The position numbers were made by a program, and so were the translations under genes. Under the pieces are notes generated by a model. The model searched no databases, was not told where the DNA came from, and saw only the letters and a program-made list of their open reading frames with translations. This document shows positions 22,090 through 39,349 of a DNA stretch of 64,000 nucleotides, one piece after another. Within the stretch, counting starts at the first letter, position 1. Each line of letters starts with the position of its first letter. This DNA comes from Thermoplasmata archaeon (GTDB taxonomy: Archaea; Thermoplasmatota; Thermoplasmata; Lutacidiplasmatales; UBA184): the NCBI GenBank assembly GCA_049585415.1, contig JBAUZT010000019.1, positions 10,152-74,151 on the forward strand, written 5' to 3'.

Positions 22090-22548
22090 CTACCCGTAGG
22101 CAGCCTTGATCAGGTAGTCTTTGAGACGATGGAGCCGATCGTCCCATAGGTGGAAGTGCCACGAACGGGCGTCCTCCCACGCTTCCCCCGAGCCCCAACC
22201 CGAGTGTTCCAGCGTCACGTCGATTCCCTCCGGCGACTCGGCGAGACGCACATACACGTGCGTCTTCGGTTCCGGAGCATTGAGGAGGGTCTCGAACGGC
22301 GGAGGAGCGAGCCAGCTGAAGTCGATGTCGAGGTCCGTGTGCATGTCGAGGATCTTCCCGCGGCTTTCGAAGGAGGTCGGACTCGACCATCCGAGGACGT
22401 ACTCCCCGCCGACCCGCGGGTCCACTCGCGCGGAGTCGCAGAGCCAGCCCGTCAACTGCGTCGGGTCCGTGAACGCCCCGAAGATCATCGGGATGGGCAG
22501 TGGGACCGTCACCTGGATGAGGATCGGGTCGAGTTCGTCATCCACCAC
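22090..22548 (-). CDS. SRPBCC-family protein (AHSA1/START-like)
   Basis: About 150 aa with an SRPBCC-like profile. Confidence 0.5.
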   Translation of the reverse strand: MVDDELDPILIQVTVPLPIPMIFGAFTDPTQLTGWLCDSARVDPRVGGEYVLGWSSPTSFESRGKILDMHTDLDIDFSWLAPPPFETLLNAPEPKTHVYVRLAESPEGIDVTLEHSGWGSGEAWEDARSWHFHLWDDRLHRLKDYLIKAAYG

Positions 22549-22732: not shown

Positions 22733-25700
22733 ATGCGCATGAACGCACCTCGCGCGAAGGTGGGTCTCGCCATATTGGTGACCTTGGTTCTGGTGGTCTC
22801 GTCGCTGGGATTACTCGGGGCCGTGGGAACGTCCACCGCGGCCAGTTCCACTCCGGCCCCGGCGAGCGCAGCCCATGCCGCCAGCACGTCGGTCCCCGCG
22901 TCGCCCACGAGCCTGAGCGCCGGATCGACGACCCCGGTGGCCCATCTCGGCACTCAATCGATCCCCCTGCCCGAGCCGACGGTCCCATCGGCCGGCGAAG
23001 CGAACACTCCGGCCGCTCAGAAGATTCTGCAATCCCTCTCCGCGAAGGGCGTCCCTCTCCACGACGTCTTCCTTCCCTACTTGATGAACGGTCCTCACCC
23101 GGGCCTTACGAATGGGCACGTCAACCTCACCTACACCAGCAGCCCCGCGCCGTACGGGATCGGCGACTTCGGACTCAAGAACGTCTCGGGGGTCATCACC
23201 CCCTACCGCCTTGCCACCCCGAGCGTGGAAGCGAACTTCTCCACCGACGGACTCTCGGGGTACTCCGCGGATATCAGCGGCCCGGACGAATGGGGAGTCC
23301 AGCTCAACGCCGTCCTCAACAACGTCACCCTGTTCGGCACGGGAGGCTACCAGTTCTGGACCCAGAATGTTATCGAGTACTCCCCGGCGCTCGGTTCCCT
23401 GACGCTCCTCAGTAACATCTGGAACTTCTCGGCCTACGAGGCCGCCCTGCCCTGTGACGTCTTCATCGAGTATACGGGAGTCCTCGCGTGCCCGGAGTTC
23501 TGGTATACCGCCTCGACCCCGATTCCCACCACCATCCCGTTCACTCTCCAACTGTACCTGAACTCGTCTCTGGTCGGTGGCCGGGACAAGGTCGACTTCA
23601 ACTACTCGCTGACCCAGGGTTCCGGAACGACCTCCGGCAACTACGCTCATGCGGTCTTCAACTCGCTCGCACCGGGGGGAAACCCGGCCCTGACCCCCGC
23701 GCCCGCGTATGTCGCGAACGGTGCGGCCTACAACCCCGCCGGTCTTCCGGACGACTTCGAAGTCATGCTGGGTGGCCCCGGCGGTGGAAGCAACTTTGAC
23801 GTTTATCTTGCCTCATACACCTACATGACGCTCCAGTACTGGAGCGCCGCCGCCCACGCTTATCTCACGGTCCCCTCCGCCTACAACGTCGGCGGGGATA
23901 CGGGCGAGACCTCGGTCGGCGTGAACGCGGCGTGGAGTAGCTTCACCTCGGAAGGGGGTTCGCCTCCGTCGGAGATCCCCACCAGCTGCCTCGCCTGCGT
24001 GACGCTGTCGAACGGCCCCTCCTTCCAGTATGGTCTTTGGAACGTGTTGGGCGCCGGGGTGCACGGATATAGCCCGCACGTCGAGACCGACTGGTTTGAC
24101 CAGTCCCACATTGATTTCGAGTTACAGCCCGGGAATGCGTTCCTGTTCCTCGCCGAATCCTGGCTCTTCACCTCATGGGGTGGGACCAACTTCTCTACGT
24201 TCCAATGGACCCCGAACTTCGATTGGACGACGGTTCACGTTGTCCTGCCGGTGGGGAACTACACGGTGGTTAGCGTGCAGTCGGAATTCGACCCACTGGC
24301 CGGTTCCTGGAGTTTCGTCACCAACCTCGAGACGGCTTCCGGCCTGTTTTCGATGGTCCCCGACCTCAACAATGGGGTCTACACGCCGCTGTGGGCGTTC
24401 AATACCACCGGGCTTCAGAAGATCTCCTCCGGAGTTGACGGTCTGGGCGACGACGTCCTCTTCAACAACGAGTACGCCAACATTGGCCAGATCCCCGATA
24501 CGACTACGTTCGGCGCCACCCCGTATTTCCCGTGGTTCGGACTCATGAACGACTACGGGTTCCCGGTGTTCCCAGGAATCCTTCTCTCCGGCGTGGATTT
24601 TGTGGACGTCACCAGCGCCCCCTCGTTCACGGTCGCGGCCCCCGGCGCGCCGAGTTATGACCTAAACCTCGTCAGGAACCTGGGATGGCCGGAGACAAAC
24701 AATCTCCAGATGTTCATCTGGGAGAGCGCGTTCATCACCTTGGCATCGTCCACGATCACGGGTTGGTGGCCGGCGGTCTCGTTCTTCGGCTTGAGCCAGT
24801 CCTTTGCGAACGTGGTCTTTTGGAACACCTCGTTCGCGGTGATCGACGGAAACCTGTTCTCTACCGGGGGGATGGCCCTCTTCCTGTACGGCGGGGAATA
24901 CAACGAGATCGAGGGCAACGTCTTCGAGACCGGATCCTCCCCGCCCTCCGCCAACCCGTCCGCGACCGTCGCGGAGACCCAAGGCTCGATCGGACTCGTG
25001 GACGCCGATTGGGGGGACGCGTACCTCTATGGCGCTCAGGCGTGGTTCAACTGCGTGGTGTGCGACGAGATCTACAACAACGCATTCATCACGCTCATCA
25101 CAGCGGACAGCCCGTCGTTGGACCCGTATACGGGGAACGCTCCGGGGCTCGCGCCCTACTCCTTCAGTCAGGCCTGGAACTTCGCGTACACGACGGGCTC
25201 CACCAACATCATCGGCGGGAACTACATCGGCGGGAACTACTGGTGGGACTACGGGTATGCCGACAACCCCTACGGATACCTGCCGGACGTCGAGCTGAGC
25301 TACGTGCCGTTAGTCGAGTCCCACGACTCCTCTCCCCCCGCGACCATCTGCGTGGACCCTTTGGGGTCGTGTGACCAGGGTGCAGGGGATTACTATCCCC
25401 TCGTGAACGTCCCGATCTACAACATCACGTTCAAAGAGCAGGGGTTGCCCACCGGGACGGAATGGGAGGTCGAAGTTTACGTCCCACCGTTGTACTACTA
25501 CTTCCAGGACGAGGACGAGTACAACTACACGCTCGCGCCCAAGGTGCTGAATTTCACCGAGTCCGCCGGCGACTGGTACTACTATCCGTACACCGGCGAC
25601 CCGAACTACGCGGCGTTCGACGGGAACGTCACGATCACGAACAAGAGCGTGGTGGTCCTCGTGAAGTTCCAGACCGCGTACAAACTCACGTTCATCGAGA

Positions 25701-26644
25701 GCGGTCTCCCCTCGATGACGGACTGGGACGTGGAGGTCGAGAACTATGCCACGGACTTTGAAGGGTACAACTACAGCGATCACCCTTCGATGAACGTCTC
25801 GGGCATACTCCCTGGAACGTACGAGTATTATTCCTACACGTACGGTTCGGCGTCCGGGAAGTACATCCCGTCCCCGAACGACGTCTACATCACTGTCAGC
25901 GCGAATGCGACCGTGCACATCACGTTCGCACCCGCGTACCGATTGTCCGTCCATGCCGTCGGGCTCCCCTCGGGGTGGGACTGGTACTTCTCCGCGACCG
26001 GCTCGGGGGCGAACTACTCCGAGTACACTTCCGACACGTGGTACAACGTCACGGTCGGCTCCGGCACGTACTCCTGGCAAACCCAGGCGGTGGGATACGC
26101 CGCTTCGCCCAGCTCGGGGACACTACCGGTGACGGCGAACACCACACTCACGATCACGTTCGTGAGCCTGGCCTCGGCCACCGGAGCCCTCTCCGGCACG
26201 GTCACCCCGGCGTCGGCCACCCTGTGGGTGGACGGTACCCCGGAGACCCTCGGAGCGGGCGGAAGCTACGACCTGACGCTCCCGATCGGCATCCATAGCG
26301 TCGAGGTCAAGGACTCGGGGTACGCGACGTACTTCAACAACGTCACGGTCTTTCTCGGCCAGACGACGACGTTGAACATCGCGCTCACGCCGGTCACGTC
26401 CTCGAGCAGCTCAAGTCCGGGCGGCATTAGCAACCTCGGCTGGATCCTGATCGCGCTCCTCGCAGCGGTCGCGGCGATCCTCTTGGTGACGACGTTGATC
26501 TTCGCGCGTCGCCGACGCACGCCGCCCCCCGTCGCCCCGTACAACGCGCCACCCTCCATGGGAGGCGCGGCGGGTGCGCCCCCGGCGGGCGCCGCCCAAC
26601 CGTGGCAGGAGTCCCCACCGCCACCGCCCGCCGGCGGCAGCTAA
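22733..26644 (+). CDS. very large surface (S-layer-like) glycoprotein with right-handed β-helix repeats, a PEGA-like domain and a C-terminal TM anchor
   Basis: Signal peptide (MRMNAPRAKVGLAILVTLVLVVSSLG), more than 40 N-x-S/T sequons, pectate-lyase/NosD-like repeat region (NLFSTGGMALFLYGGEYNEIEGNVFE), PEGA-like β-sandwich near the C-terminus, then a Ser-rich linker, a TM helix, RRRR and a Pro-rich tail. Confidence 0.7.
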   Translation: MRMNAPRAKVGLAILVTLVLVVSSLGLLGAVGTSTAASSTPAPASAAHAASTSVPASPTSLSAGSTTPVAHLGTQSIPLPEPTVPSAGEANTPAAQKILQSLSAKGVPLHDVFLPYLMNGPHPGLTNGHVNLTYTSSPAPYGIGDFGLKNVSGVITPYRLATPSVEANFSTDGLSGYSADISGPDEWGVQLNAVLNNVTLFGTGGYQFWTQNVIEYSPALGSLTLLSNIWNFSAYEAALPCDVFIEYTGVLACPEFWYTASTPIPTTIPFTLQLYLNSSLVGGRDKVDFNYSLTQGSGTTSGNYAHAVFNSLAPGGNPALTPAPAYVANGAAYNPAGLPDDFEVMLGGPGGGSNFDVYLASYTYMTLQYWSAAAHAYLTVPSAYNVGGDTGETSVGVNAAWSSFTSEGGSPPSEIPTSCLACVTLSNGPSFQYGLWNVLGAGVHGYSPHVETDWFDQSHIDFELQPGNAFLFLAESWLFTSWGGTNFSTFQWTPNFDWTTVHVVLPVGNYTVVSVQSEFDPLAGSWSFVTNLETASGLFSMVPDLNNGVYTPLWAFNTTGLQKISSGVDGLGDDVLFNNEYANIGQIPDTTTFGATPYFPWFGLMNDYGFPVFPGILLSGVDFVDVTSAPSFTVAAPGAPSYDLNLVRNLGWPETNNLQMFIWESAFITLASSTITGWWPAVSFFGLSQSFANVVFWNTSFAVIDGNLFSTGGMALFLYGGEYNEIEGNVFETGSSPPSANPSATVAETQGSIGLVDADWGDAYLYGAQAWFNCVVCDEIYNNAFITLITADSPSLDPYTGNAPGLAPYSFSQAWNFAYTTGSTNIIGGNYIGGNYWWDYGYADNPYGYLPDVELSYVPLVESHDSSPPATICVDPLGSCDQGAGDYYPLVNVPIYNITFKEQGLPTGTEWEVEVYVPPLYYYFQDEDEYNYTLAPKVLNFTESAGDWYYYPYTGDPNYAAFDGNVTITNKSVVVLVKFQTAYKLTFIESGLPSMTDWDVEVENYATDFEGYNYSDHPSMNVSGILPGTYEYYSYTYGSASGKYIPSPNDVYITVSANATVHITFAPAYRLSVHAVGLPSGWDWYFSATGSGANYSEYTSDTWYNVTVGSGTYSWQTQAVGYAASPSSGTLPVTANTTLTITFVSLASATGALSGTVTPASATLWVDGTPETLGAGGSYDLTLPIGIHSVEVKDSGYATYFNNVTVFLGQTTTLNIALTPVTSSSSSSPGGISNLGWILIALLAAVAAILLVTTLIFARRRRTPPPVAPYNAPPSMGGAAGAPPAGAAQPWQESPPPPPAGGS

Positions 26645-26837
26645 GGCCGCCCGTCGCGACATGGGTCCAACCATTTCCTCCTCTCGGATACAGACTCCCG
26701 CGGCCCGCAAAGGGTGCCGGGGGGCGCTCACGCCCTCGCACGGTCGTCGAGCGCACTGGTCAGATCGCTGTCGCAGCGCGGCGGCAGCGGGGGACCCCAA
26801 ATTTATTGTCTCACGTCTTGTTCGGCCCCCCTGCACA

Positions 26838-28673
26838 ATGCGGTCGAGGTTCGGGCGTCGCACGATGCGTCCGTGGTTCGCCCTGCTCGTGGCGGGGCTC
26901 TTCCTGGCGAGCTTCTCGGGGTACCTGGCCGCGCCCCACGCGGCCTCGTCCGAGGCTTCCTCGGTCGCACCTGCGGCCGTGCCCGCGAGCGCGTCCAATA
27001 CGGTGATCGCCACCATTCCGGACATCAGCTCCCCCACGACCGGAACGTACGACCCGGCGAACGGGGACATCTACCTCCCGGACACGACTCTGGGACTCGA
27101 CTCCGGGACCAACGGGACCAACCTGACGATCATCGACGGCGCGACCAACTCCGTCACGGCCGTGGCGAGCCTCGGGATCAATGCTTACTACGAGACCCCC
27201 ACTTACGTGCCCCCAAACGAGGAGCTCTATGTCGCCGACCAGAACGGGTCGTTCGGCGTCAACAACGTCACGGCCTATACCGGGACGGACCACGTTGAGG
27301 CCAACATCGACACCGGAAACGCGTCGACGCCCACGACGCCGGTATACGACCCCGTCAACAAATACCTCTACGTTTCCGACCAGAACACGGCGTCGCTCAC
27401 CGCCCTCAACGACAACGTTTCGGTGATCAACACGACGACCAACACCCTCGTGACCCAGATTGGGGTCGGGTATGGCCCCGACCCGGGAGTTTACGATCCC
27501 GCGGACGGGGACGTCTACGTGCCGAACTTCAATTTCGGGAGCGGCACCAACCTCAGCATTATCAATGCGACCTCCGACACGGTCATCGACACCATCTCGC
27601 ATCTCAGCTCTCCGATCACCCCGGTCTACAACCCCGCCAACCAGGAGGTCTACGTCCCAGACGGCGGCCTGAACTCCTCGAACCTCACGATCCTCAAGGG
27701 AACGACGGTCGTGAAGACGATCGAGTTCAACACGGCCGACTCGGGTGACTTGTTGACCCCGGTGGTCGACTCGGCCAACGGGGACGTGTTTGTGACCCTG
27801 TACGCCACCGGTGGGATGGCCGTGCTCTCCCCCTCCAACACGGTCGTGACGACGATCTCCATCGGGGTCGAAAACTCGTTCTACAACCACCCGTCGACCT
27901 ACGACCCAGTCAACGGGGAGGTTTACGCCCCGGGGTACAGTTTCTATGGCGAGACTGGCGGGGTCTTCGCCATCAACGGCACAACCAATACGGTCACCAC
28001 CCTGATCGACGTCGGGGGCGCCCCCCAAACCCCCGTCTTCGACCCGGCCAATGACGAGGTATTCGTCCCGAACGAGGACACGAACAACGTAAGCGTGATC
28101 GACGGCGCTGCGTCAGGGGCGCCGCCACCGCCACCGGGCGAGTACGACGTGACGTTCACGGAGACGGGACTTCCGTCCGGCGCCTGGTGGAAGGTGACGT
28201 TCGACGGAACGACGATGAACGAGACCTCGAACTCGATCGTATTCTCGGACTACGCGAACAACTCGTACCCGTACACCCTTGATGGCTGGTACAGCGAGAG
28301 CACGTGCACTTCGGGGCTGACGAGCCCCTCGGGGATGCTAACCGTCAACGGCAAGGCGGCCACGATGACGATGCCGTTCACTTGCTCCAGTTCTACCCCG
28401 CCCCCGAGCTCGGGAGGCGGGGGATCGTCGTCCGGCTTCCTCGGCCTTCCCGGAGATGATGGCTACTTCCTGATCGGGGGCGTTGTCGCTGCCGTGGCGG
28501 TCGGACTGGCGGCTCTCCTGCTTCTCCGCGGCCGCGCTCCCAAGGGCGGCTCGTTCGCCGGAGCGCCCATGGGAGCCGGCGGCATGGCTCCCGGCGGTGC
28601 GCCACCTCCTCCGCCACCGCCTCCTCCCCCCCCGCCCGGCACGGGATGGCCGCCCCCACCGCCGCCGCCATAG
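26838..28673 (+). CDS. YVTN-family β-propeller repeat surface protein with a C-terminal TM anchor and poly-proline tail
   Basis: Signal peptide. Eight or more YVTN repeats (GTYDPANGDIYLPD, PVYDPVNKYLYVSD, GVYDPADGDVYVPN, PVFDPANDEVFVPN...). C-terminal TM followed by PPPPPPPPPPPPGTGWPPPPPPP. Confidence 0.75.
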   Translation: MRSRFGRRTMRPWFALLVAGLFLASFSGYLAAPHAASSEASSVAPAAVPASASNTVIATIPDISSPTTGTYDPANGDIYLPDTTLGLDSGTNGTNLTIIDGATNSVTAVASLGINAYYETPTYVPPNEELYVADQNGSFGVNNVTAYTGTDHVEANIDTGNASTPTTPVYDPVNKYLYVSDQNTASLTALNDNVSVINTTTNTLVTQIGVGYGPDPGVYDPADGDVYVPNFNFGSGTNLSIINATSDTVIDTISHLSSPITPVYNPANQEVYVPDGGLNSSNLTILKGTTVVKTIEFNTADSGDLLTPVVDSANGDVFVTLYATGGMAVLSPSNTVVTTISIGVENSFYNHPSTYDPVNGEVYAPGYSFYGETGGVFAINGTTNTVTTLIDVGGAPQTPVFDPANDEVFVPNEDTNNVSVIDGAASGAPPPPPGEYDVTFTETGLPSGAWWKVTFDGTTMNETSNSIVFSDYANNSYPYTLDGWYSESTCTSGLTSPSGMLTVNGKAATMTMPFTCSSSTPPPSSGGGGSSSGFLGLPGDDGYFLIGGVVAAVAVGLAALLLLRGRAPKGGSFAGAPMGAGGMAPGGAPPPPPPPPPPPPGTGWPPPPPPP

Positions 28674-28813
28674 TCGTGGGCCAGTTCGAACGGCGAAGTG
28701 AATCCACGACATTGGGCGCCCCGAGCTCTAGAGATTGTCTGATCGAGGTCGGAGCTCGATTCGGCCGAAACTATGGAGAGAAGGGGTTCGGGCCGATCCC
28801 GAGGACCGGGGGA

Positions 28814-30982
28814 CTAGGACGCCGGGGGCGGTGAACCCGGCCCCGTGGGAGCTGTGTTCGGTTGCCCGGGTTGCGTGGTGGTCGGCTTCTTCCGACGCCG
28901 CATGAGCAGCACCGCTGCGACGATCACGACGAGCACGACCACGACACCGACGATCAGGTAGGTCAACGTCGCACCACTCAGGCCCGAGCTGGAGCTCGGG
29001 CTGGGGCTAGGACCGGGCGACGGAGCCGCGCTCACGGTGATGGTGACCGAGTTCTTGGCCGTCCCGCCGACGGTGTCCGTGACCGTCAAGTTCACGACGT
29101 AATTGCCCGCCCTCGCGTAGGTATGCGCCGCGGGATCCTGTGCGGTGCTCGTGGTCGCATCGCCGAAGCTCCATGCGTAGGTGTACGTCCCGCTGCCCCC
29201 GGTGGGGCTCGTCGTGAAGGTGACCGCTCCGCCCGCCGTGATCGTCGTCGCGGAGGCGGTGATCGTGGCGGCCACGACCGGGTTCACCGTGAGGCTGACG
29301 CCGGAGCTGGTGCCCTCGATGTAGAAGAAGTCCGACCACGTCACCGTGGCCGTGAAGGCGCCCGACGTGCCGTAGGTGTACGGGATCATCTCCGAGTACG
29401 CCGCCGAGCTGCTCTCTCCGGCCGCCGCGCGCAGGAGTGTATGCATCCCGTCGCCGGTCGAGAGGTTCCAGCCGGCGTACCATCCGGTACCCGTACCCAC
29501 CGCCCACGCCGCGGTGAAAGTGACCGCAGTTCCCAGGTCCATGGGGTTCGGGGTCGCGGTCAGCGTCGCCTGGGGCGGGGTCTCAAAGACCCACTCGTGC
29601 CCGTCGCAGTTTACGGGGAAGTAGCAAGAACCGCCGACCAGGAACACACCGATGCCGGTGGAATTCACAGCGAGGGCGGGCCCCTCGAGCGGGACGTAGG
29701 AGGCCGGGGCTGCGGGGCTGATCGCATGCCAATGTCCGGCGAGGAACTCCCAACTGTCGTTGTACTCTCCGTAAGTGGCGTTGTACCCGGCGGTCAAGAA
29801 GACACCGCCGAGTTGGGCATCCCAGGTGATCGCGATGTCGCTGCGGCCCGGCGGGGTGCAACCGAGCGCGCAGCCGCCGTCCATCCCGGTGATGTTGACC
29901 CAGTTGTCAGCAAATTCCGTGCCCCCAGAGTAGGTGTACGTGTAATTCGTGTACGGGTACTCGGTGTAGAAGTCCCATCCGCCGAACAGGACCATGTACC
30001 CGTCGACCGGATCGTAGGCCATCCCCGGTTCATCAAGGAAGGTACCGTCGGCCAGGTAACCGGGCCCGTAGTCAATCGTGTGCCAACCGGTCGAGTTGAG
30101 AAGCCACGTGTACTCTTGTGAGTAGTCGCAGGAGTTGTCGTCGCAGCCATCGACGAGCAAGAATCCATGGAGCGCGGGGTCCCAAGCGGCCCCGGACCCG
30201 CCGATACCTCCCTCCGCCAGGTAATGGCGGAGGTTGTCCAGAAGGGGTCCCGTGGTCCCCGTGATGTTCTTCCAAGTGCCCGTGAAGAGCCACGTGTCGT
30301 TGAGACCCAAGCCGTCGACGTTCCACCCCCCGACGAGGATGACTCCACCCATGGCCGGATCATAGTCGAAGCCGAAGAACCACCGCGCGGAGGGCACCGT
30401 GTGGCCGAGAGTCGAGGTCAGGTTGGTCCAGGTATCCCCGTTGTACACCCAGGTGATGCTCTCGTAGGGGTTGTTAGGGTTCTCGACGCCGGTACCCGAG
30501 AACAACACGACTTCACCCAGGAGAGGATCAAACGCCATCCGCGCGCCGTACCCGATTGCGGGGACCACTCCACCCGATGCCTTCGCCACGTTCGTCGTGA
30601 CATTGTACCACGATGGGTCGGTTCCCGAAAGCGTCGGTGTATGAGCGGGCGAGGCCATCGCGGCGGCAGGGCCCTTCCGGGCACTGTCTCCGACGTTCGT
30701 GATGTCACGAGGAGCCGAGCCGCCACAGGTGGCCGCCGTTCCGGAGCTCACCGCGCACGTCGCGGTGGATCCGGATCGCGCGGCGCCCGCGTTGAGGTTC
30801 GCGACAGCCTTCTGAAGCAATGCAGTCCCGGCCGGCGTGGCATCGGAGGCCGGATGGGCTGAGCCTGAGGGGGTGCCGGAAATCGGTAGGCCGACGCCTT
30901 GAGCCGCGGCGACGAACCCACCACTCATGATGGCTACAACGACGATGGCCACGACGGCGGTCAGTAGTGGGGTCCGCGACAT
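28814..30982 (-). CDS. Kelch/galactose-oxidase-like β-propeller plus PKD-domain surface protein with a C-terminal TM anchor
   Basis: Signal peptide MSRTPLLTAVVAIVVVAIMSGG, Kelch-like repeats (GGW...DTW), a PKD motif (YAWSFGDATTS...HTYARAGNYVVNLTVTD), a Ser/Pro linker, then TM-RRRKK and a Pro-rich tail. Confidence 0.7.
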   Translation of the reverse strand: MSRTPLLTAVVAIVVVAIMSGGFVAAAQGVGLPISGTPSGSAHPASDATPAGTALLQKAVANLNAGAARSGSTATCAVSSGTAATCGGSAPRDITNVGDSARKGPAAAMASPAHTPTLSGTDPSWYNVTTNVAKASGGVVPAIGYGARMAFDPLLGEVVLFSGTGVENPNNPYESITWVYNGDTWTNLTSTLGHTVPSARWFFGFDYDPAMGGVILVGGWNVDGLGLNDTWLFTGTWKNITGTTGPLLDNLRHYLAEGGIGGSGAAWDPALHGFLLVDGCDDNSCDYSQEYTWLLNSTGWHTIDYGPGYLADGTFLDEPGMAYDPVDGYMVLFGGWDFYTEYPYTNYTYTYSGGTEFADNWVNITGMDGGCALGCTPPGRSDIAITWDAQLGGVFLTAGYNATYGEYNDSWEFLAGHWHAISPAAPASYVPLEGPALAVNSTGIGVFLVGGSCYFPVNCDGHEWVFETPPQATLTATPNPMDLGTAVTFTAAWAVGTGTGWYAGWNLSTGDGMHTLLRAAAGESSSAAYSEMIPYTYGTSGAFTATVTWSDFFYIEGTSSGVSLTVNPVVAATITASATTITAGGAVTFTTSPTGGSGTYTYAWSFGDATTSTAQDPAAHTYARAGNYVVNLTVTDTVGGTAKNSVTITVSAAPSPGPSPSPSSSSGLSGATLTYLIVGVVVVLVVIVAAVLLMRRRKKPTTTQPGQPNTAPTGPGSPPPAS

Positions 30983-31220
30983 CCCCTCCCTGTGCGCGCC
31001 CTCGTACATAGACCTGCCTAGAGAATCCCATCGGACAGCCCGCGCCGCTCCGCTCCCATGACCGTGGTCGGCTGTTCATCCATGGGATCCCGCGGGTACG
31101 AGCCAACTCGAGCGGATAGACCGCTCGGGATTTGTCCGATTGTGGGTTCAAAAAGGATTACGGCGCCCATCGGCGGGTTCCGCGACCGTGGGTTAATCCG
31201 CTCGAGCAGGATGGCCGGCC

Positions 31221-34200
31221 GTGGCAGCGGGGCGTCGGCTCTCGGCGGTCATGCTGACCGACATCGTCGGGTACTCCGCGTTGAGCCAACGCGACGAGAC
31301 CGCCGCACTCCGGCTCGTCGACGAGCATCGGCAGATCGTCCGGCCGGTGCTCGCCGAGTTCGAGGGCACAGAGATCAAGACCATGGGGGACGGGTTCCTG
31401 ATCGAGTTCCCGAGCGCGCTGAGCGCGGCCCTCTGCGCGATCGAGCTCCAGCGGCGCATTAACGAGCGCAATCAGTCGGCGCAGGGCGAGCGGATGCAGC
31501 TGAGGATCGCGCTGCACGTCGGCGACGTGACCCATGAGGGCGGCGACATCTTCGGTGACGCGGTCAACATCGCGAGTCGGCTGGAACCGCTCGCCGACCC
31601 GGGCGGGATCCTGGTCTCGGGTCCGGTCTACGACCAGATCCGCGGCAAGATCGAGGGCGACCTCACGCAGATCCCGACCCCGACCCTAAAGAACATCGCC
31701 ACCCCGGTGACCGCGTACCGGGTCGAACTCGCCTGGAGAGCGCCGGCGCTGCCCCGCGTTACCCCCTGGACGGATCGGGAACGCGAGATCGACTCGCTTC
31801 GGCCGCTCCTTCAGGACGTTCACCGTGGTGAAGGGAGCCTGGTGATAGTCCAGGGCGAGTCCGGGGTGGGGAAGACCCGACTCGCGGAGGAACTCCTCCA
31901 CGAAGCGGAGCCGGCGGGCTTCCGTGTCCTCCGCGGTCGGTCGTTCCGAGGGGAGGACGTCGCCTACGGCCCCTGGGCCCAAGCGATCCGCTCGTTCGTC
32001 CAGGACGCGTCCCCGGGGATCTTGATGCGCGCGTGCGGACCGTTCTCCGCCGACCTCGCCACGCTACTGCCGGAACTGGCCGACCGTCTCGGGCCGGCGC
32101 CGGCGACTTCGTCCGAGGCCCCGGACCAGCTGCGGGGTCGCATGCTCGAAGGCCTCGCCGGGTTCCTCGTCGCGCTCTCCCGAGAGGCGCCGCTCGCCAT
32201 CCTGCTGGACGACTTCCAGTGGGCCGACGTCTCCTCCCAACGACTCCTCCAGCGCCTAGTCTACGACCTGCCGGGCCATCGGATCCTCGTCCTTGCCTGT
32301 CTGCGCGAATCGGACCGGGAAGAGTCCCCGGGGCTCCAACGCCTACTGCTCGACCTTCGTCGCTCGCGACCTCCGACCGTCATCGGACTGAAGCGATTCT
32401 CCCGCGCGGAGTTCGACAACTTTGTCGACCGCCTCGTCTCCCGCCCGACGCTTCCCGAATCTCCGCGAGCCATCGTCTTCGAGAAGAGCGGCGGGAACCC
32501 GTTCTTCGCTGAAGAGCTCGTGCGTCGTCTGCTCGACGACGGGACCCTTCGGCGTTCCGGCGACGGATGGATCTTTTCGTCCTCGACCGACCTGCGGCTT
32601 CCGGAGAGCGTGCGCGCCCTCCTGAGCGAGCGGCTCGCGCACCTGGATGCCCCGACCCGAGAAGTGCTTCGGATCGCCGCGTTCGCCGGGCCGACGGTCT
32701 CGTTCGACGTGTTGAAGCACCTCGCGGGGATGAACGAGGACGAGCTGACGATCGCCCTCGAGCGCGCCCTTCAAGCACGGGTCCTGAGGGAACTGCCCGG
32801 GGCGCTCGCGGGCGACGAGCTGGCGTTCACCGACCTTCAGACCCGACAGGTCCTCCTGGACGAGGTGAGTCGCATCCGGGGTCGGCAATATCACCGCAAG
32901 GTCGCGGAGGCGATCGAGTTGCTCGACCCGCATGCACGGGATGCCCGCGCGGCGGAACTGGCCGAGCACTTCATCGAAGCCCATCAACCTGCGAAGGCGC
33001 TCGAGTACCTCGAGCTCGCGGGGGACGAGGCGACCCGGGTCTCGGCGTACGCGGATGCTGCCCGGCACTACGCTCTGGCCCTCGAACTCGCGGAGGAGGA
33101 GCGCGTCGTCACGCCCCGCGCGCGGCTCGTAGAACACCTCGCGGACGCCCAGATCAGCGAGGGCGAGTTGAACAGGGGGCGCGAGGGTTGGCAGAAGGCG
33201 GCAGAGCTGTACCGCACCGCGGGCGACCTCCGCCGGGCCGGGGAGATCTACGGCCGCATCGCGAAGACCTACTGGACCTACACGGACGATGAGTCTCGGT
33301 ATCGGGACGCCTACGGGAAGGCCCTCGAGCTGCTACGAACGCTCCCTCCCGGCCCAGAGCTCGCCCGGCTCCTCGCGTTCACGAGCTACGTCTTCGGATT
33401 CTGGGGGGACCACAGCGGGGCCCGGACCGTGGCCGCCGAGGGGCTCGAGCTCGCCCGCCAGCTGAAACTCCCCGCCGCGGAGGCACTCGCGGAGGTCGGT
33501 CTCGCGGTGATCGCACCGTTCCCCGACAAGGAGGGCGCGCTGAGTCACATCCGGAAGGCGGTGTCGCTGGCCCCAGTCGAGGATCTGGAGGCCTGGTTCT
33601 CGGTGCGAGGGATCTGGTCCGTCGTCATATCGAGCCTCCTAGAGGACCCCCTCGAGGCGTCGCGAGTGGACGAAGAGACCTGCGAGGAGGTCCACCGGCG
33701 TCGGCTCCCCGCCCTAGAAGTCCACGAGCACGACATCCTCGCCAGTAGATTCGCCGACATGGGCAACGTCACCAAAGTCCGGGAGCACCTCGCGCTCGGG
33801 AACGCGATCCGAGCTCGCTTGGCGTTCGAGGAGGGGCCGACCAGCGGGGCATTGAGATCCGCCCGTTCGCCGGGTCCGGACGAGATCGACGCCGCGGTGA
33901 AGTTCCACCTCGCCAACTTGGAGCGGTACGAGCGAAGTGCCCCCTGGCACTGGGGAGTGTTCCAAACGATGGCGCAACTGGGATTCTTGGCGCTCCAGCG
34001 CGACGACACCGAGGGCGCCCTCGCCTGGGCAGACCGGGCGCTCCGCGGTCTGGCGGAACACGGACGTACGGCATGTCTCGCGCCGACGTATGCGACTCAC
34101 CTGCTGCTGTCCGTTCGCGCGAACGCGGCCCTGGGCCGGACGGAGTTCGCCCTCACGCGTCTACTCGAGCTCCGGGCCGCGGCAGATGCCGCGCAGCTCC

Positions 34201-34490
34201 AGCTCATGCTCGGCTGCGCCCGAGAGGCCGAGGGTCACCTCGCACGAGCCGAAAAGCGGCCGGGCGATTCCGCGCGAGCCTTCCAGGAAGCCGAGGAACT
34301 GTTCACGCGTCGCCGAGTGATGAGCCCCGCTCTCGAATGCCGGATCGAGCTCGGCGTCGCGCTGAACCACTCCGGTCATCGCGAGGAGGCCCGGCTCCTA
34401 TGGAAGGGAGCGTTCGAGGCGGCGGCGACGATGGGATTCGACGGGCTGGCGGCTCGAGCGCAAGGTCTGCTGGCTCATGCGGATGGGTGA
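31221..34490 (+). CDS. class III adenylyl/guanylyl cyclase domain fused to an AAA+ ATPase and TPR-like repeats (STAND-like signalling protein)
   Basis: N-terminal CHD catalytic motifs (MLTDIVGYS, EIKTMGDGFLIEF, RIALHVGDV, GDAVNIASRLE). Walker A QGESGVGKTRLAEEL, Walker B LLDDFQWAD. A long α-helical repeat region follows, with no C-terminal HTH. Confidence 0.75.
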   Translation: MAAGRRLSAVMLTDIVGYSALSQRDETAALRLVDEHRQIVRPVLAEFEGTEIKTMGDGFLIEFPSALSAALCAIELQRRINERNQSAQGERMQLRIALHVGDVTHEGGDIFGDAVNIASRLEPLADPGGILVSGPVYDQIRGKIEGDLTQIPTPTLKNIATPVTAYRVELAWRAPALPRVTPWTDREREIDSLRPLLQDVHRGEGSLVIVQGESGVGKTRLAEELLHEAEPAGFRVLRGRSFRGEDVAYGPWAQAIRSFVQDASPGILMRACGPFSADLATLLPELADRLGPAPATSSEAPDQLRGRMLEGLAGFLVALSREAPLAILLDDFQWADVSSQRLLQRLVYDLPGHRILVLACLRESDREESPGLQRLLLDLRRSRPPTVIGLKRFSRAEFDNFVDRLVSRPTLPESPRAIVFEKSGGNPFFAEELVRRLLDDGTLRRSGDGWIFSSSTDLRLPESVRALLSERLAHLDAPTREVLRIAAFAGPTVSFDVLKHLAGMNEDELTIALERALQARVLRELPGALAGDELAFTDLQTRQVLLDEVSRIRGRQYHRKVAEAIELLDPHARDARAAELAEHFIEAHQPAKALEYLELAGDEATRVSAYADAARHYALALELAEEERVVTPRARLVEHLADAQISEGELNRGREGWQKAAELYRTAGDLRRAGEIYGRIAKTYWTYTDDESRYRDAYGKALELLRTLPPGPELARLLAFTSYVFGFWGDHSGARTVAAEGLELARQLKLPAAEALAEVGLAVIAPFPDKEGALSHIRKAVSLAPVEDLEAWFSVRGIWSVVISSLLEDPLEASRVDEETCEEVHRRRLPALEVHEHDILASRFADMGNVTKVREHLALGNAIRARLAFEEGPTSGALRSARSPGPDEIDAAVKFHLANLERYERSAPWHWGVFQTMAQLGFLALQRDDTEGALAWADRALRGLAEHGRTACLAPTYATHLLLSVRANAALGRTEFALTRLLELRAAADAAQLQLMLGCAREAEGHLARAEKRPGDSARAFQEAEELFTRRRVMSPALECRIELGVALNHSGHREEARLLWKGAFEAAATMGFDGLAARAQGLLAHADG

Positions 34491-34637
34491 AGGCCGAGCC
34501 CGACGATCGGGATCGGGCCGTTGCGGCCAGGGTGGGGAACGCCACTCCTCCATCCCGTAGGCGATGTAGGGCGCGTCGCGGCCCGTTCGGGTGCACGACC
34601 GGAGCTGCCTCCTAAGGGGGCTGCACTCCGAGCCGGA

Positions 34638-34711
34638 TGGACTGGTCGGGATTTGAACCCGAGGCCTCCGGTTTGCAAAACCGGCGATCTTCCGGACTGA
34701 TCTACCAGCCC
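34638..34711 (-). tRNA. tRNA-Ala (anticodon UGC)
   Basis: Reverse complement GGGCTGG-TA-GATC...GATC-G-CCGGT-TTTGCAA-ACCGG-AGGCC-TCGGG-TTCAAAT-CCCGA-CCAGTCC-A folds as a canonical 74-nt cloverleaf with a G3:U70 pair. Confidence 0.85.
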
Positions 34712-34823
34712 ATCCGGCGCGTCAGGTGAGCTTCTCGGTCTTAGCCTTTCGGACGACCGCGATGCCGCCGGTGGTGGCCCGCTCCCCGGGAAACGCCATC
34801 TACCCCGCTCGGGTCGCCGGTGC

Positions 34824-35813
34824 GTGAAGCTCAGCGCGTTCACGGTGGTCGACACGCATCCCGACGGACCCGAGGGAACGCCCGACCGGTACGCGGACGT
34901 GCTCCGGCTCGCGAAGGCGGTCGAGGCGGGTGGCCTCTCCACCTTCTGGGTCGCCGAGCACCACTTCCAACCGGGCGGGCTGTGCCCTTCTCCCCCGGTG
35001 CTTCTCGCGGCGTGCGGCGCGCAAACGCGGCGGATCCGCCTTGGGGCCATGGTGAGCGTCCTTCCGTTCCATCGTCCGATCGAGCTCGCCGAGCAGTACG
35101 CCATGGTCGACCGGCTCACGGGGGGCCGTCTCAACCTCGGCGTGGGGAGCGGCTACATCCCGCTCGAGTTCGAGGGGTTCGGGGTCGACCCCGCGACCAA
35201 GCGGGATCGATTCGACCGGAGCCTCGAGACCCTGCTCGCGGCCTTCGACGGCGGGGAGGTCCGTTCCGAGGAGCCCGGGGCGGTCCCGGTGCGGCTCAAC
35301 GTTCTTCCCGTGCAGCGACCCCATCCGCCGCTCTGGATCGCGGTCCAGCGGCGGGAGGCGCTCCCCTTCGTGGCGCGCCGGGGTGCTTCTCTCGGCCTGG
35401 TCCCCTACGCCACGGTGGCGAACCTCGCCGAGCTCGGCGAGGAGATCCGGGAATTCCGCTCCCACCTCCCCGAGGGACGCTCCGCGGAGGTCGCGGTCGC
35501 CGTCCACCTCTACGCCGGCGATCGACCCGAGCGGGCGCGGAAGGCTCTTGGGCGGTATCTCGAAGCGCGGCTCGCGACGCAGAGCACGTTCTATCAGGAG
35601 AAGGTTCGCCGCGACCCCCACCACGCGACCGCGGCGTCGATCGAGGCGAACGGCTTCGCACTCTTCGGCACCGCCCCGGAGGTCGCTCAGCGGCTCTCCG
35701 AGTACGCGGCAATCGGGGTCGATGAGATCCTCGGGATCTTCGATTTCGGAGGACTCGATGCCGGTGCCGCGACGCGATCGGTGCGCCGACTGGGATCCGA
35801 GTTCGCCCACTGA
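34824..35813 (+). CDS. LLM-class (luciferase-like) flavin/F420-dependent oxidoreductase
   Basis: TIM-barrel LLM signature (FWVAEHHF, LGVGSGY). Confidence 0.75.
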   Translation: MKLSAFTVVDTHPDGPEGTPDRYADVLRLAKAVEAGGLSTFWVAEHHFQPGGLCPSPPVLLAACGAQTRRIRLGAMVSVLPFHRPIELAEQYAMVDRLTGGRLNLGVGSGYIPLEFEGFGVDPATKRDRFDRSLETLLAAFDGGEVRSEEPGAVPVRLNVLPVQRPHPPLWIAVQRREALPFVARRGASLGLVPYATVANLAELGEEIREFRSHLPEGRSAEVAVAVHLYAGDRPERARKALGRYLEARLATQSTFYQEKVRRDPHHATAASIEANGFALFGTAPEVAQRLSEYAAIGVDEILGIFDFGGLDAGAATRSVRRLGSEFAH

Positions 35814-35871
35814 ACGGTCGTGACCCGGGCGCCGCTCCACCGGAGGGGCGCCGTCCGCTCCTCCCGCGACG

Positions 35872-38415
35872 CTACTGCGCGCCCGACGGGGGAGTCGGGA
35901 GCGGAGGTTGTGCGTCGGGCGCGGGAGCGTCCGTGGGAGGGGTTGAGGGAGTCTCCTTCCATTCCGTTGCCGGTGCGGTCGACGGAGCGGGCGCCGCGGG
36001 CGACATCGGCTCGGTGGCCGAATAGGTCGACGGAGTCGACTTCGGGCTCCGGCCGCGCCGCATCAGGAGGAACAGCACCAGCGCGACCGCGATGATCACG
36101 ATCAGGAGGATCAACATCCCTACCGTGAACCCGCTCCCGGCCCCGAGCTCCAGGCTCAGAAGCGACGGGTGGGCGTTGACGGTGATCGCCGTCTGGGCCC
36201 AGCAGTAGCCGGTGAAGTTGCTTTCCTCTTCGCAGCCCGGCCCGCTGAACAGACCGTGCGCGTAGACCTCGCCCCCGATCCCCAGTGAGCCCGAGGGGGT
36301 GTTCGAGGGGATCGTGAGTCCGATCGTCCCCGACGTCGCGGTGGTCGCGAGGGTCTCGGCGACGGCGACATTGGGGCCGAAGAAGAACGCGAGCGGGCCG
36401 AGAGCGATGTACACCTGGTACGTCGGGGGAAGCGGAAGTCCGCTGTACGAGTAGACCGCCCACGAGACTTGGATCGTCTGGCCGGGCTGGTAACTTCCGT
36501 CCGCGTAGTTGGAGGCCGTGCTCACGCCGATCTCGACGTAGTACCCGGTCTCGAGTTCGCTATCCGTACCCGCGGTGGCGTACACTCCGGTCGCCGTCGT
36601 CTGAGCGGAGACCTCGAGATCGTAGTACGTCGCCGCTCCGGTCCCGGGAACGGAGTAACTGACGACGTTGGACGAGCCGACCGTGCCGGTCGCCACGAGT
36701 CCGTTCGAGATCTCGTCACCGTACTGGTCGTCCCAGTAGCCGATCACCGTGTAGGTCGTCGTCGTGCCGGCGAGGGCTGCCGGCGAGAAAACGAGGTTCC
36801 AGCTGAGCTGGGACCCCGGCGTGAAATAGAGTGATCCCGAGACGGCGAGGGTCGGTTGCTCGACGATGGCGTACGCCCCTCCGGAGAAGCTCGAGGTGGC
36901 GTTCGTCGCGATGACCCAGACGTAGAATTGGCCCAGGAGGTCCGCGGGCAGCGGGACCGTGAACGTGCCGGTCGAGGCGGTGCTGGTGATGGATCCCGTC
37001 GCGAGCAGACCGCCGTTTTCCGTCGCGAGCTCCCACTCGGTGGCGTCAAGCGCCCCGACGGACGTGTTGGAGGAGCTGAGGGTCCAGGTCGCCGTTACGG
37101 TCGCGCCCGGGGCGTATTCGTTGGCGTTGAGCGCCACTTCCACCGCGCCCGTGGCGGCGCCGGGGGCCACCCGGAACGAGCCGTTATGCCAGGTGGTCCA
37201 TGCCCCTACGCCGGTGGCCTTGGTGTCGTTCACCGTGATGTTGACGGCGTTCACGAACGGGTGGACGGTGTCGAGGGTGAACGGAGGGACGTCGGCGGTG
37301 AACGAGAACGAGACCTCGCCGTTCGCGGCGGTGCTCAACGTAGTGGGTGGGTTACCGCCGGGCGTGACGTGGGTCGTGCCGTTCCAGAAGGCGATGGTGA
37401 CGGTCAGTCCCGGGACGGGGTTGAACTGGGCTCCAGCTTCCGCGCCCGCATATCCGATGACTTGGACGGGGCAGCCCACGAAGAACGCGCCGTCATTGAC
37501 CGTTCCACAGGGCGACGACATCGAGCCACCCGAGATCCAGGTGTTGCCTACGAACAGCGCGCTGTAGTAGGTCCAGTTGGCCGTGACCGTGCTTCCGACC
37601 TTGACCACGCCGGAGAGGTTGAAGTAGAACGTCGTGAGGGCGGCGGCGTCCGTCGGGATAGTGAACGTCGTGCTGCCCGCGGCCGTGAGCGGTAGGGCTA
37701 CGAGGGCCGTAGAGAACGCGTCGTGGTAGGCAGTGCCGTTGTAGTAGGAGCCCCAGAGGGTCAAGTTGGTGAGGTCGTTGTAGGCGCCACCGTTCGCGGC
37801 GCTGACGACCCACCAGTTGAGCGTGACGGATTCTCCCGGGAGCACGGCCGAACCCTGCGCCGGGTTCGACTGGTCCGAGACGCCGTAAGTGTAGAGTGTC
37901 AGGTTCTCGAAGGCGAACCCGCCGAGGGGAGCCGAAACGGTGACGTTCCATCCACCACCGTAGACGATGGCGGACGGGAAGGTGTAGACGAGGCCGTTCT
38001 GGGCCGGGGTGCTACCGTGGGTGATCGAGTCGATGGCGACCGATGCCGAGAACACGGGGTTCGAGAGCCCGTCCCGGGTCGCGTTCGGGTCATTGAGCGT
38101 GAGGTTGACGGTCGCGTCCGCGTCGGTGTCATGGACCTTGAATTGGATCGAGTTGACCCCGGGCGTGGGGAAGTACGGTGGCGATCCGCCGGGATCGTAG
38201 TACGGGCCGGAGTAGAATGCCGGGGTCGTGGTACCTGCAAGGTTGGAGGTCGTTACGGTGAGCGCCGGCACGTCGGGGGTGGCCGCGGTCGTGAACGGCG
38301 AAGCTTGCGGGGTGGACGCGCGCGGGGCGCCCGAGGTGGTCCCCGCGAAGGAACCGATCAGGACGGATACGATCAGCAGGGTGACCAAAGCGGTGGCTAC
38401 GACTACGCGCGACAT
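35872..38415 (-). CDS. large surface (S-layer-like) glycoprotein with a C-terminal TM anchor
   Basis: Signal peptide MSRVVVATALVTLLIVSVLIGSFAG. 847 aa, Thr/Ser/Gly-rich β-type sequence with many sequons. C-terminal TM (GMLILLIVIIAVALVLFLLMRRGR) and a Pro/Thr/Ser-rich tail. Confidence 0.65.
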   Translation of the reverse strand: MSRVVVATALVTLLIVSVLIGSFAGTTSGAPRASTPQASPFTTAATPDVPALTVTTSNLAGTTTPAFYSGPYYDPGGSPPYFPTPGVNSIQFKVHDTDADATVNLTLNDPNATRDGLSNPVFSASVAIDSITHGSTPAQNGLVYTFPSAIVYGGGWNVTVSAPLGGFAFENLTLYTYGVSDQSNPAQGSAVLPGESVTLNWWVVSAANGGAYNDLTNLTLWGSYYNGTAYHDAFSTALVALPLTAAGSTTFTIPTDAAALTTFYFNLSGVVKVGSTVTANWTYYSALFVGNTWISGGSMSSPCGTVNDGAFFVGCPVQVIGYAGAEAGAQFNPVPGLTVTIAFWNGTTHVTPGGNPPTTLSTAANGEVSFSFTADVPPFTLDTVHPFVNAVNITVNDTKATGVGAWTTWHNGSFRVAPGAATGAVEVALNANEYAPGATVTATWTLSSSNTSVGALDATEWELATENGGLLATGSITSTASTGTFTVPLPADLLGQFYVWVIATNATSSFSGGAYAIVEQPTLAVSGSLYFTPGSQLSWNLVFSPAALAGTTTTYTVIGYWDDQYGDEISNGLVATGTVGSSNVVSYSVPGTGAATYYDLEVSAQTTATGVYATAGTDSELETGYYVEIGVSTASNYADGSYQPGQTIQVSWAVYSYSGLPLPPTYQVYIALGPLAFFFGPNVAVAETLATTATSGTIGLTIPSNTPSGSLGIGGEVYAHGLFSGPGCEEESNFTGYCWAQTAITVNAHPSLLSLELGAGSGFTVGMLILLIVIIAVALVLFLLMRRGRSPKSTPSTYSATEPMSPAAPAPSTAPATEWKETPSTPPTDAPAPDAQPPLPTPPSGAQ

Positions 38416-39227: not shown

Positions 39228-39274
39228 GGCCCGGGGCACGGCCCGGACCGCACGGCTCCTGCCCTCGTCGCCGA

Positions 39275-39349
39275 TGGGACTGGCCAGATTTGAACTGGCG
39301 TCTCGGAGTCCCGAACCCCGAAGGATGGACCAAGCTACCCCACAGTCCC
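39275..39349 (-). tRNA. tRNA-Pro (anticodon CGG)
   Basis: Reverse complement GGGACTG...CGGGG-TTCGGGA-CTCCG...GCCAG-TTCAAAT-CTGGC-CAGTCCC-A, with a perfect 7-bp acceptor stem. The D-arm is slightly atypical, so the anticodon call needs tRNAscan-SE confirmation. Confidence 0.7.

Follow-up and report, generated by a model that had tools for sequence, protein, structure and literature searches.

What holds the surface proteins of an uncultured soil archaeon in its membrane, and does the Pro-rich stretch that follows their membrane anchor have a function of its own? The question is raised by four genes in a 64,000-nucleotide segment of contig JBAUZT010000019.1 (assembly GCA_049585415.1, Thermoplasmata archaeon, Lutacidiplasmatales), called here the window, to which all positions refer. 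Gene A (22733..26644, + strand) encodes a thermopsin-family (peptidase A5) surface protease of 1303 aa; gene B (26838..28673, + strand), a probable YncE/YVTN-type β-propeller surface protein of 611 aa; gene C (28814..30982, - strand), a 722-aa surface protein that contains two PKD domains and a putative Kelch-like propeller; and gene D (35872..38415, - strand), a conserved core surface protein of 847 aa. The four open reading frames (ORFs) lie exactly where a first-pass annotation, made by a model from the sequence alone, had placed them, and their codon-position GC is coding-like, with a GC content at third codon positions (GC3) of 0.82-0.87 (0.85 in A). That annotation described an island of giant proteins with an identical C-terminus; only A exceeds 1000 aa, and the C-termini are alike in architecture but not in sequence. 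The answer proposed here, which we regard as rather likely, is that A-D are exported by the Sec pathway, N-glycosylated, arrested in the membrane by a stop-transfer helix with the tail inside, and kept permanently as bitopic envelope glycoproteins.

Each of the four proteins has an N-terminal hydrophobic segment that resembles a signal peptide and exactly one further hydrophobic segment, located near the C-terminus (Kyte-Doolittle 2.7-3.5). The latter is directly followed by a cluster of Arg and Lys residues (RRRR in A, RGRAPK in B, RRRKK in C, and RRGRSPK in D) and by a tail of 45, 48, 28, and 62 aa, respectively, of which 27-46% is Pro. Hydropathy and sequence bear out the succession that had been described for all four proteins: a single transmembrane (TM) helix, then the basic residues, then the Pro-rich tail. 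The tail was said to measure 25-45 residues; the real range is 28-62 aa, that of D being longer than proposed. A Ser/Pro linker had been ascribed to all four proteins; A, B, and C have one, D lacks it.

The ectodomains of A-D are rich in Asn, Ser, and Thr, contain about 2% Lys plus Arg, and carry their Cys residues in close pairs. The claim that they are rich in N-glycosylation sequons is well founded: there are 23, 15, 12, and 15 sequons in A, B, C, and D (1.7-2.5 per 100 aa), about twice the composition-shuffled expectation (z 2.5-3.0) and 5-20 times denser than in the cytoplasmic proteins of the window, which have 0-0.5 per 100 aa. All of them fall within the stretch bounded by the signal peptide and the TM helix, and none is found in the tails. 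A-D are probably N-glycosylated. In 40 proteins of the lineage, Lys plus Arg amount to 3.2 in the first 8 residues of the tail versus 0.33 in the 15 residues preceding the helix. Because of this charge asymmetry, of the restriction of sequons to the ectodomains, and of the structural model of D described below, the Pro-rich tail is predicted to be cytoplasmic and A-D to be type-I bitopic proteins (N-out/C-in). The positive-inside rule, therefore, places the tail inside the cell and not outside.

Protein A matches thermopsin PF05317 along profile positions 4-256 of 256 (165.6 bits, cut-off 25, E 2e-48), and some of its 111 homologs are named 'thermopsin family protease [Thermoplasmata archaeon]'. 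It also contains NosD β-helix and PEGA/CarboxypepD_reg-like domains recognised by Pfam; the earlier description as 'β-helix plus PEGA' was correct for both elements but missed the main domain. Extracellular thermopsins are typical of acidophilic Thermoplasmata (PMC9287336). The full thermopsin domain is what A has in common with the thermopsins (peptidase A5) of Sulfolobus and Thermoplasmatales, from which it differs by its length of about 1300 aa, the added β-helix and PEGA-like domains, and the anchor cassette. This cassette comprises the pre-TM segment PGGISNLGW (26417-26443, + strand), the TM helix predicted by hydropathy (26444-26506, + strand), and the tail RRRRTPPPVAPY…AQPWQESPPPPPAGGS (26507-26641, + strand). 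The order GISxLGW, TM helix, (A)RRGRxPPxxxPY…PxW[QS]E…PPPPG is kept in about 50 cluster representatives of the family, which share 38-67% identity. When 55 A-type tails were aligned, 53 proved to contain a single Trp, located at a median distance of 12 residues from the C-terminus; W[QSKRNT][EQGTSA] is present in 52 and PPP within the last 14 residues in 50. Since distant thermopsin homologs (one of them from a Thermoplasmataceae archaeon) carry only 5-10 basic residues after the helix, the Pro-rich tail appears to be a clade-specific elaboration.

In a second public assembly, from the same or a near-identical organism, the copies of A and D (P0031 and P0002, on a contig of 296,687 bp; 98-100% identity over part of their length) are frameshifted and their C-termini are out of frame, which would hide the anchor cassette from annotation. 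These frameshifts may be an assembly or sequencing artefact.

Protein D, which is identical to a protein of an NCBI metagenome-assembled genome (MAG; locus tag WB947_06140), has no Pfam domain above cut-off (A2M_BRD, 20.4 vs 22.7). There are 28 homologs; every named one comes from a Thermoplasmata MAG and the rest are unnamed metagenome sequences. An AlphaFold2 (AF2) model built from an alignment of 25 family members is all-beta, with about seven sandwich domains (mean predicted local distance difference test score, pLDDT, 77.8), a TM helix at residues 765-786, and a disordered tail with pLDDT below 50. The best PDB matches of this model in Foldseek are the macroglobulin (MG) arrays of alpha-2-macroglobulin and complement C3/C5 (E 1e-18, TM-scores 0.16-0.33). 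Thus, the 'Thr-rich β-rich domain' of the first-pass annotation is all-beta in the model and can be specified as about seven MG-like β-sandwiches: the ectodomain is predicted to be an array of MG/immunoglobulin (Ig)-like β-sandwiches, by fold resemblance and not by family membership. This string of sandwiches is the likeness to alpha-2-macroglobulin and C3-C5; the difference is that D has half their length and no CUB or TED region. None of the 4 Cys residues in the D sequence belongs to a CxEQ thioester motif. D was also considered as an S-layer or thioester protein, and nothing beyond the generic MG/Ig fold was found for it.

The TM helix of D, located by hydropathy, is encoded at 36061-36117 (- strand) and its tail at 35875-36060 (- strand). 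At an overall identity of 31-54%, the family keeps a tail of the form RRGRSP…(T)PMxPPAPAPSxPPAxEW[K/Q]E…PPLPTPPxGA[Q/T], in which W819 and P840 are invariant; column conservation is 0.59-0.66 in the tail versus 0.42-0.61 in the ectodomain.

In protein C, PKD scores 54.8 bits over two stretches (cut-off 23.5) and Kelch_3 18.6 bits, below its cut-off of 22; of the 'Kelch plus PKD' proposed for it, the PKD part is firm but the Kelch part stays under threshold. Hydropathy locates the TM helix at 28901-28957 (- strand), and the tail, RRRKKPTTTQPGQPNTAPTGPGSPPPAS, occupies 28817-28900 (- strand). Orthologs of C in six related loci (L002-L007, 47-72% identity) keep RRRKKPxxAQPWQ…PPPPPPS. Other anchored proteins are found in the same loci. 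For instance, a second C-anchored family (L003 5317-7497, L004 35-2098, and L005 2960-5107) has a cytoplasmic tail that is not Pro-rich, a conserved stretch of about 118-128 aa containing …ELERxARGRxHLLxxADP…GWTGPPVxPEEWAEWIxALVxDGSL…, which may be a folded intracellular domain. A multi-TM protein of 464-466 aa also lies near the C orthologs (L003 18983-20383, L004 15243-16637, L005 20546-21946, L006 11808-13208, and L007 10265-11665); its tail has 62-64 aa, 17-27% Pro, and an invariant …FHSxPRFE….

Protein B shows no Pfam match; TIGR02276 reaches 22.1 bits (cut-off 27.85) and the YncE match is also below cut-off. The YVTN β-propeller attributed to it consequently rests on repeats matched below cut-off and on its closest homologs, at 67-70% identity, which NCBI names 'YncE family protein [Thermoplasmata archaeon]'. 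The C-terminal cassette of B is formed by the motif GFLGLPGDDGY (28434-28466, + strand), the TM helix given by hydropathy (28467-28526, + strand), and the tail RGRAPK…GTGWPPPPPPP (28527-28670, + strand). The pre-TM motif of the B homologs, including those of 25-35% identity, is [S/T]x-F-L-G-L-P-[G/A]-x-[E/D]-G-Y; FLGLPxxEGY occurs in 76 of 120 homologs versus 6.4% of background 150-aa windows, and in the near homologs the tail ends in Trp plus poly-Pro.

A profile of 53 positions, covering the motif, the helix, the basic cluster, and the first prolines of the B cassette, was searched against 1.84 billion representative proteins. At E<=1e-3 it retrieved 941 representatives, 116 of them with E<=1e-10, and in all of the 150 best matches the cassette is at the extreme C-terminus. 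The motif is nearly invariant among the best matches; counted out of 133, its residues are F in 121, L in 128, G in 133, L in 130, P in 132, E/D in 124, G in 131, and Y in 128. Tail length in these matches has a median of 27 aa, Pro accounts for 22% of the tail, and G[D/E]PPxxP is a frequent ending. In 55 full-length carriers, 37 Pfam families are represented, which puts the cassette on at least 37 ectodomain families, with domains such as NHL/YVTN/lactonase propellers, Kelch plus PKD, PQQ propellers, and ice-binding-like, PBP-like, pro-kumamolisin, and purple acid phosphatase domains. Most carriers are nameless, and all those with a source name belong to a Thermoplasmata or 'Euryarchaeota' archaeon. 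The cassette of B is a large, modular C-terminal domain. In many FLGLPxxEGY proteins (for example P0272, P0278, P0287, P0292, and P0308) RRRxKAPPEP is followed by a terminal …(P)DAG[D/E]PPxxP-COOH, which is unlike the W/poly-Pro ends of the window proteins.

How far do the tails of different families resemble each other? Profile-profile comparison with hhalign aligns the A and D tails colinearly (Prob 94%, E 9e-8, score 36), and the score falls to 11-13 when one profile is reversed; the similarity is weaker for A-C (19 vs 11 reversed) and D-C (18 vs 10 reversed). The tails are best described, as far as their sequences go, as family-specific versions of a shared template without a single identical module. 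In this template a basic cluster is followed by a Pro-rich stretch, then by a motif of aromatic/acidic character, and at the end by poly-Pro closed by small residues. Within families they seem to be under purifying selection and as well conserved as the ectodomains. Ordered, conserved motifs in a disordered cytoplasmic tail argue for a reader.

The route proposed for these proteins would begin with Sec-dependent export by means of the N-terminal signal peptide and would continue with glycosylation of the N/S/T-rich, K/R-poor ectodomain. Translocation would stop at the single C-terminal helix, the R/K cluster fixing the orientation, and the protein would be retained as a bitopic protein, with an anchor that is presumably permanent. 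The Pro-rich tail, of 28-62 aa, would stay in the cytoplasm, extended and disordered, displaying PPxxxPY next to the membrane, one Trp within PxW[Q/S/K]E, and PPPxG or poly-Pro at its end. These motifs could be read by a putative shared partner, cytoplasmic or membrane-embedded, that would sort, position or turn over the envelope proteins. Cultivated Thermoplasmatales have no S-layer; cryo-tomography revealed in them an unordered glycoprotein layer of about 20 nm whose protein composition is unidentified (PMC12448462). It is plausible that A-D are components of an unordered exterior protein layer of this kind, replacing the S-layer, and the earlier guess of 'wall-less or S-layer-poor' archaea fits with such envelopes (PMC12448462).

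Several observations weigh against this reading. Pairwise Smith-Waterman alignments of the four window tails do not rise above shuffled sequences (z<1.2), except for the pair A and D (z about 3), and HMMER profiles of the A and D tails, run on all the ORFs and proteins gathered, detect only their own families, with a large bias correction. Because the window tails are dissimilar beyond composition and the HMMER profiles do not cross-detect, there is no single 'identical module', and the idea of a common sorting module in the form of one identical sequence had to be abandoned, the pair A and D being a weak exception; tail similarity is lacking between the window tails beyond composition but is evident within each family and between the A and D profiles. 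A, C, and D match the hidden Markov model of the B cassette only over the helix and the basic cluster, B being the only canonical carrier of the four. Trp is not enriched in the tails of the lineage (1.1% vs 1.7%), and the W motif, considered as a universal feature of the tails, was rejected for this reason and is regarded as a family-level trait. The assignment of signal peptides and topology relies on hydropathy, charge, and AF2 rather than on a dedicated predictor. The S-layer-less envelope is known from cultivated Thermoplasmatales and the lineage of A-D is uncultured. Neither a binding partner nor a sorting enzyme nor a conserved neighbouring gene could be detected, and the docking to a cytoskeleton or membrane skeleton suggested in the first-pass annotation was a guess to which no partner can be attached. 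Finally, our lineage census covered 453 ORFs, filtered by GC3, from 36 Thermoplasmata loci that include the window; the loci were chosen by similarity to C and are hence enriched in surface proteins, which inflates the absolute frequency of the 44 bitopic C-anchored proteins found in them and of the 28 ORFs, out of 453, with a tail of >=15 aa and >=20% Pro.

The conserved motif on the outer face of the membrane suggests another explanation, in which the cassette is a cleavable signal of the sortase type. An archaeosortase-, rhombosortase- or sortase-like enzyme would recognise the juxtamembrane motifs (FLGLPxxEGY in B, GISxLGW in A, and GAGSGLTVGW in D) together with the helix and the basic cluster, cut both helix and tail away, and attach the ectodomain to a lipid or an envelope polymer; the tail would serve only until processing. 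LPXTG, PEP-CTERM, PGF-CTERM, and GlyGly-CTERM signals are characterised by a motif that precedes a TM helix and basic residues. The cassettes share this tripartite layout; that of the B type is extremely conserved at the outer membrane face (G 133/133, P 132/133, and Y 128/133 in the best matches), strictly C-terminal, and modular over 37 ectodomain families. Several CTERM models match the cassettes weakly, the best being GG_III-CTERM (NF041738) with 21.3 bits versus a cut-off of 22, on one FLGLP protein from outside the window. However, known sorting signals end a few residues past the basic cluster, whereas in these proteins 25-70 more residues with conserved motifs follow it. No CTERM model reaches its cut-off, any one of them matching at most 4/60 cassettes at E<=0.01, and no archaeosortase- or sortase-like gene is seen among the annotated genes of the 64 kb window. 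We consider this explanation unlikely.

More specifically, the only match of an NCBIfam CTERM model on A-D at E<=1 is that of GG_III-CTERM on C, which is insignificant (E 0.76). PGF-CTERM (TIGR04126) has no match on A-D at E<=1, attains 10.6 bits at best on related cassettes (cut-off 24.5) and matches 1/60 cassettes at E<=0.01; the four juxtamembrane segments contain no PGF motif. The remaining curated CTERM and sortase models (PEF-CTERM, VPXXXP-CTERM, LPXTG, MYXO-CTERM, and others) are all below cut-off on the cassettes. A-D also lack a lipobox, because no Cys directly follows the hydrophobic core of the signal peptide; the first Cys is at residue 241 in A, 490 in B, 76 in C, and 303 in D. 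The earlier statement that the C-terminus is neither a PGF-CTERM/archaeosortase signal nor accompanied by a lipobox is thus upheld.

The closest known systems can be compared on the same points. PGF-CTERM substrates, such as the S-layer glycoprotein of Haloferax volcanii, share with these proteins the signal peptide, the Ser/Thr-rich stalk, the outer-face motif, the TM helix, the basic cluster, and the modular use of the signal on many ectodomains. They differ in having the PGF motif and in ending at the basic cluster, whereas here there is no PGF and a conserved Pro-rich cytoplasmic tail of 25-70 aa. The models GG_III-CTERM (NF041738, 'GGIII-like transmembrane region-containing protein'), GPS-, PVV-, GVDTG-, Loki-, and Heimdall-CTERM, and LPXTG are similar in being short TM plus basic models with sub-threshold matches, but these matches span the TM helix and not FLGLPxxEGY or the tail. 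Eukaryotic type-I glycoproteins have Pro-rich cytoplasmic tails with ligand motifs for SH3, WW or EVH1 domains. The topology, the glycosylated ectodomain, and the disordered tail with PPLP-like and PxxP-like motifs and an aromatic residue next to poly-Pro recall them, as an analogy only: no archaeal reader domain has been identified and no homology is implied. C-terminal helix anchors, CTERM sorting domains, and the ordinary ectodomain families of A-D are well known; the combination of a Thermoplasmata-specific juxtamembrane motif and a conserved Pro-rich cytoplasmic tail appears to be undescribed, and nothing relevant emerged from literature searches on Thermoplasmata for proline-rich tails or archaeosortase.

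A second alternative is that the tail is passive, a disordered spacer produced by the GC bias (68%) and relaxed constraint behind a generic anchor, with no common partner. Pro, Gly, Ala, and Arg have GC-rich codons, tail length ranges from 12 to >70 aa with some members of the lineage short-tailed or non-Pro, and the lack of alignment between the window tails beyond composition and the family-specific HMMER profiles, with their large bias correction, point in the same direction. Nevertheless, in the census the tails contain 25% Pro versus 7.4% in the background, whereas the last 45 aa of 298 non-anchored ORFs have a mean of 8.3% Pro; of 221 ORFs in high-GC bacterial loci that the same query retrieved, 6 are C-anchored and none (0/221) has a Pro-rich tail. 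GC bias as the full cause of the Pro-rich tails is ruled out by these two controls, and the contrast between Thermoplasmata and bacteria stands despite the C-biased choice of loci. Conservation also speaks against a passive tail: its columns are conserved as much as or more than the ectodomain, with invariant Trp and Pro at 31-54% identity, the ordered motifs in about 50 representatives of the A family are incompatible with drift, and the reversed-profile controls of hhalign fail. A merely passive tail is in our opinion improbable, and the anchor architecture is a lineage-wide feature of these Thermoplasmata.

The weakest proposal is that some 30-60 slow, poly-Pro-rich residues act as a ribosome spacer allowing the last helix to leave the tunnel and integrate at SecYEG before termination. 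In its favour, tails of 28-62 aa (family medians about 27-45) approach the textbook length of the ribosomal tunnel and terminal poly-Pro runs are frequent (in the lineage tails, Pro up to 50-55% at C-terminal positions -4 to -5). Against it, the same type of ectodomain is anchored in some relatives by a tail of 5-10 residues, and the conserved Trp/acidic motifs and the juxtamembrane PPxxxPY are left unexplained. We regard this proposal as very improbable.

Do the four genes constitute an island? The core order around D is tRNA-Pro, a metallo-beta-lactamase-fold gene (MBL), D, a luciferase-like oxidoreductase gene (LLM), and tRNA-Ala, and it is kept in relatives whose D proteins share 36-54% identity. 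The tRNA-Pro(CGG) gene of this core context, found by ARAGORN and Rfam, is at 39273..39350 (- strand). On the other side, the interval between an AHSA1-family gene (Pfam; 22090..22548, - strand) and tRNA-Ala(UGC) (ARAGORN and Rfam; 34635..34712, - strand) has a variable content. It is flanked by the AHSA1 gene also in L084, L081, and L083, and tRNA-Ala adjoins the LLM gene in L081-L083. The AHSA1-to-tRNA-Ala/LLM interval harbours unrelated genes in L081 and L083, only a thermopsin gene in L084, and A, B, C, and a cyclase gene in the window. The latter (31221..34490, + strand) encodes a 1089-aa adenylate/guanylate cyclase plus STAND ATPase regulator, not a surface protein, according to the Pfam domains Guanylate_cyc and AAA_16 of the identical gene in L001; it resembles TIGR03903 (182 bits, below cut-off) and is missing from the slot in L081, L083, and L084.

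Since the flanking genes are constant in relatives while the content between them differs, the A-B-C-cyclase block is a variable (accessory) chromosomal slot beside tRNA-Ala, and D is a neighbouring core gene. The accessory locus inferred at first pass is therefore right for the A-B-C-cyclase block but not for the syntenic gene D. The block has a GC content of 0.60-0.67 versus 0.65-0.71 nearby, a mild dip without a strong anomaly. No integrase is present among the annotated genes of the window, no att-like direct repeats flank the block, and no DNA repeats indicative of gene conversion are shared between the 3' ends. With neither integrase nor flanking repeats and only a mild GC dip, an integrative genomic island was discarded. 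A conserved four-gene island was discarded as well, because in the synteny comparison the six closest GTDB loci held only C: its orthologs in these six related genomes are located elsewhere, and none of A, B, and D is found around them. In L082 the equivalent position is taken by a shorter cyclase-TPR gene (13855-15777), and cyclases recur beside tRNA-Ala in the slot.

The Trp, Ala, and Pro tRNA genes that were thought to bracket the locus are real, but tRNA-Trp brackets nothing: 10 kb of housekeeping genes lie between it and the slot. This tRNA-Trp(CCA) gene (12717..12880, + strand; 164 nt; Rfam RF00005, 41.8 bits), which is outside the surface-gene locus, contains an intron of about 90 nt, and its CCA anticodon can be read in the sequence. 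ARAGORN, with default settings, reported two tRNAs and missed this one, which was recovered by Rfam.

Other genes of the window are related to the cell surface or the membrane. At 11543-12727 (- strand) there is a substrate-binding protein of a FecCD-type ABC (ATP-binding cassette) transporter, anchored by an N-terminal helix, whose 8 sequons (z 3.5) and 0.3% Lys give it an extracellular composition like that of A-D. A 604-aa multi-TM protein (14641-16455, + strand) shows a weak SpoVB/MOP-flippase-like match (32.6 bits) and a C-terminal tail of 89 aa with 16% Pro; it may be an oligosaccharide/polysaccharide flippase for surface glycosylation. The conserved protein encoded at 40813-41787 (- strand) begins with a TM helix, continues with a long middle part rich in Pro, Gly, and Ala, and ends in a double zinc ribbon; it would be membrane-tethered and cytoplasmic. 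Here and in its relatives (L081 17045-17965, L083 6648-7574, and L084 13422-14363) the gene is always beside Nre and the S-adenosylmethionine (SAM) synthetase.

The window is a piece of archaeal chromosome with a GC content of 65-71% that includes the archaeal markers Nre, an archaeal-type SAM synthetase, and Orc1/Cdc6. The genomes closest to it are uncultured soil 'Thermoplasmata archaeon' MAGs, and the host itself is a soil Thermoplasmata MAG of 68% GC. A domain scan also detected UvrB, and two large multi-TM ORFs at 53.5-57.4 kb are presumably Kdp, as judged by hydropathy only. Lutacidiplasmatales is an acid-soil order with a GC content of about 69% (PMC9287336). The GC content, the thermopsin, UvrB, and the presumed Kdp ORFs of the window would agree with the description of this order.

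It is a tentative possibility, less probable than the anchoring itself, that soil and peat Thermoplasmata possess a new sorting or anchoring system for an S-layer-less envelope, based on a modular cassette (FLGLPxxEGY-type motif, TM helix, basic cluster, and Pro-rich tail) that is read from both sides of the membrane by a dedicated partner. If this were true, the partner might be an enzyme of the sortase type, an adaptor in the cytoplasm or a membrane skeleton, and the cassette would define the 'surfaceome' of the lineage. A tail with a reader would represent a rare prokaryotic coupling of surface proteins to the cytoplasm through short linear proline motifs, as well as a new entry among the C-terminal sorting signals. 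The FLGLPxxEGY cassette, with 941 clusters and no Pfam or NCBIfam model at cut-off, could be converted directly into an annotation model, and would provide a sequence handle to list the envelope proteins (proteases, propellers, binding proteins, and phosphatases) of uncultured Thermoplasmata from acidic soils and peat.

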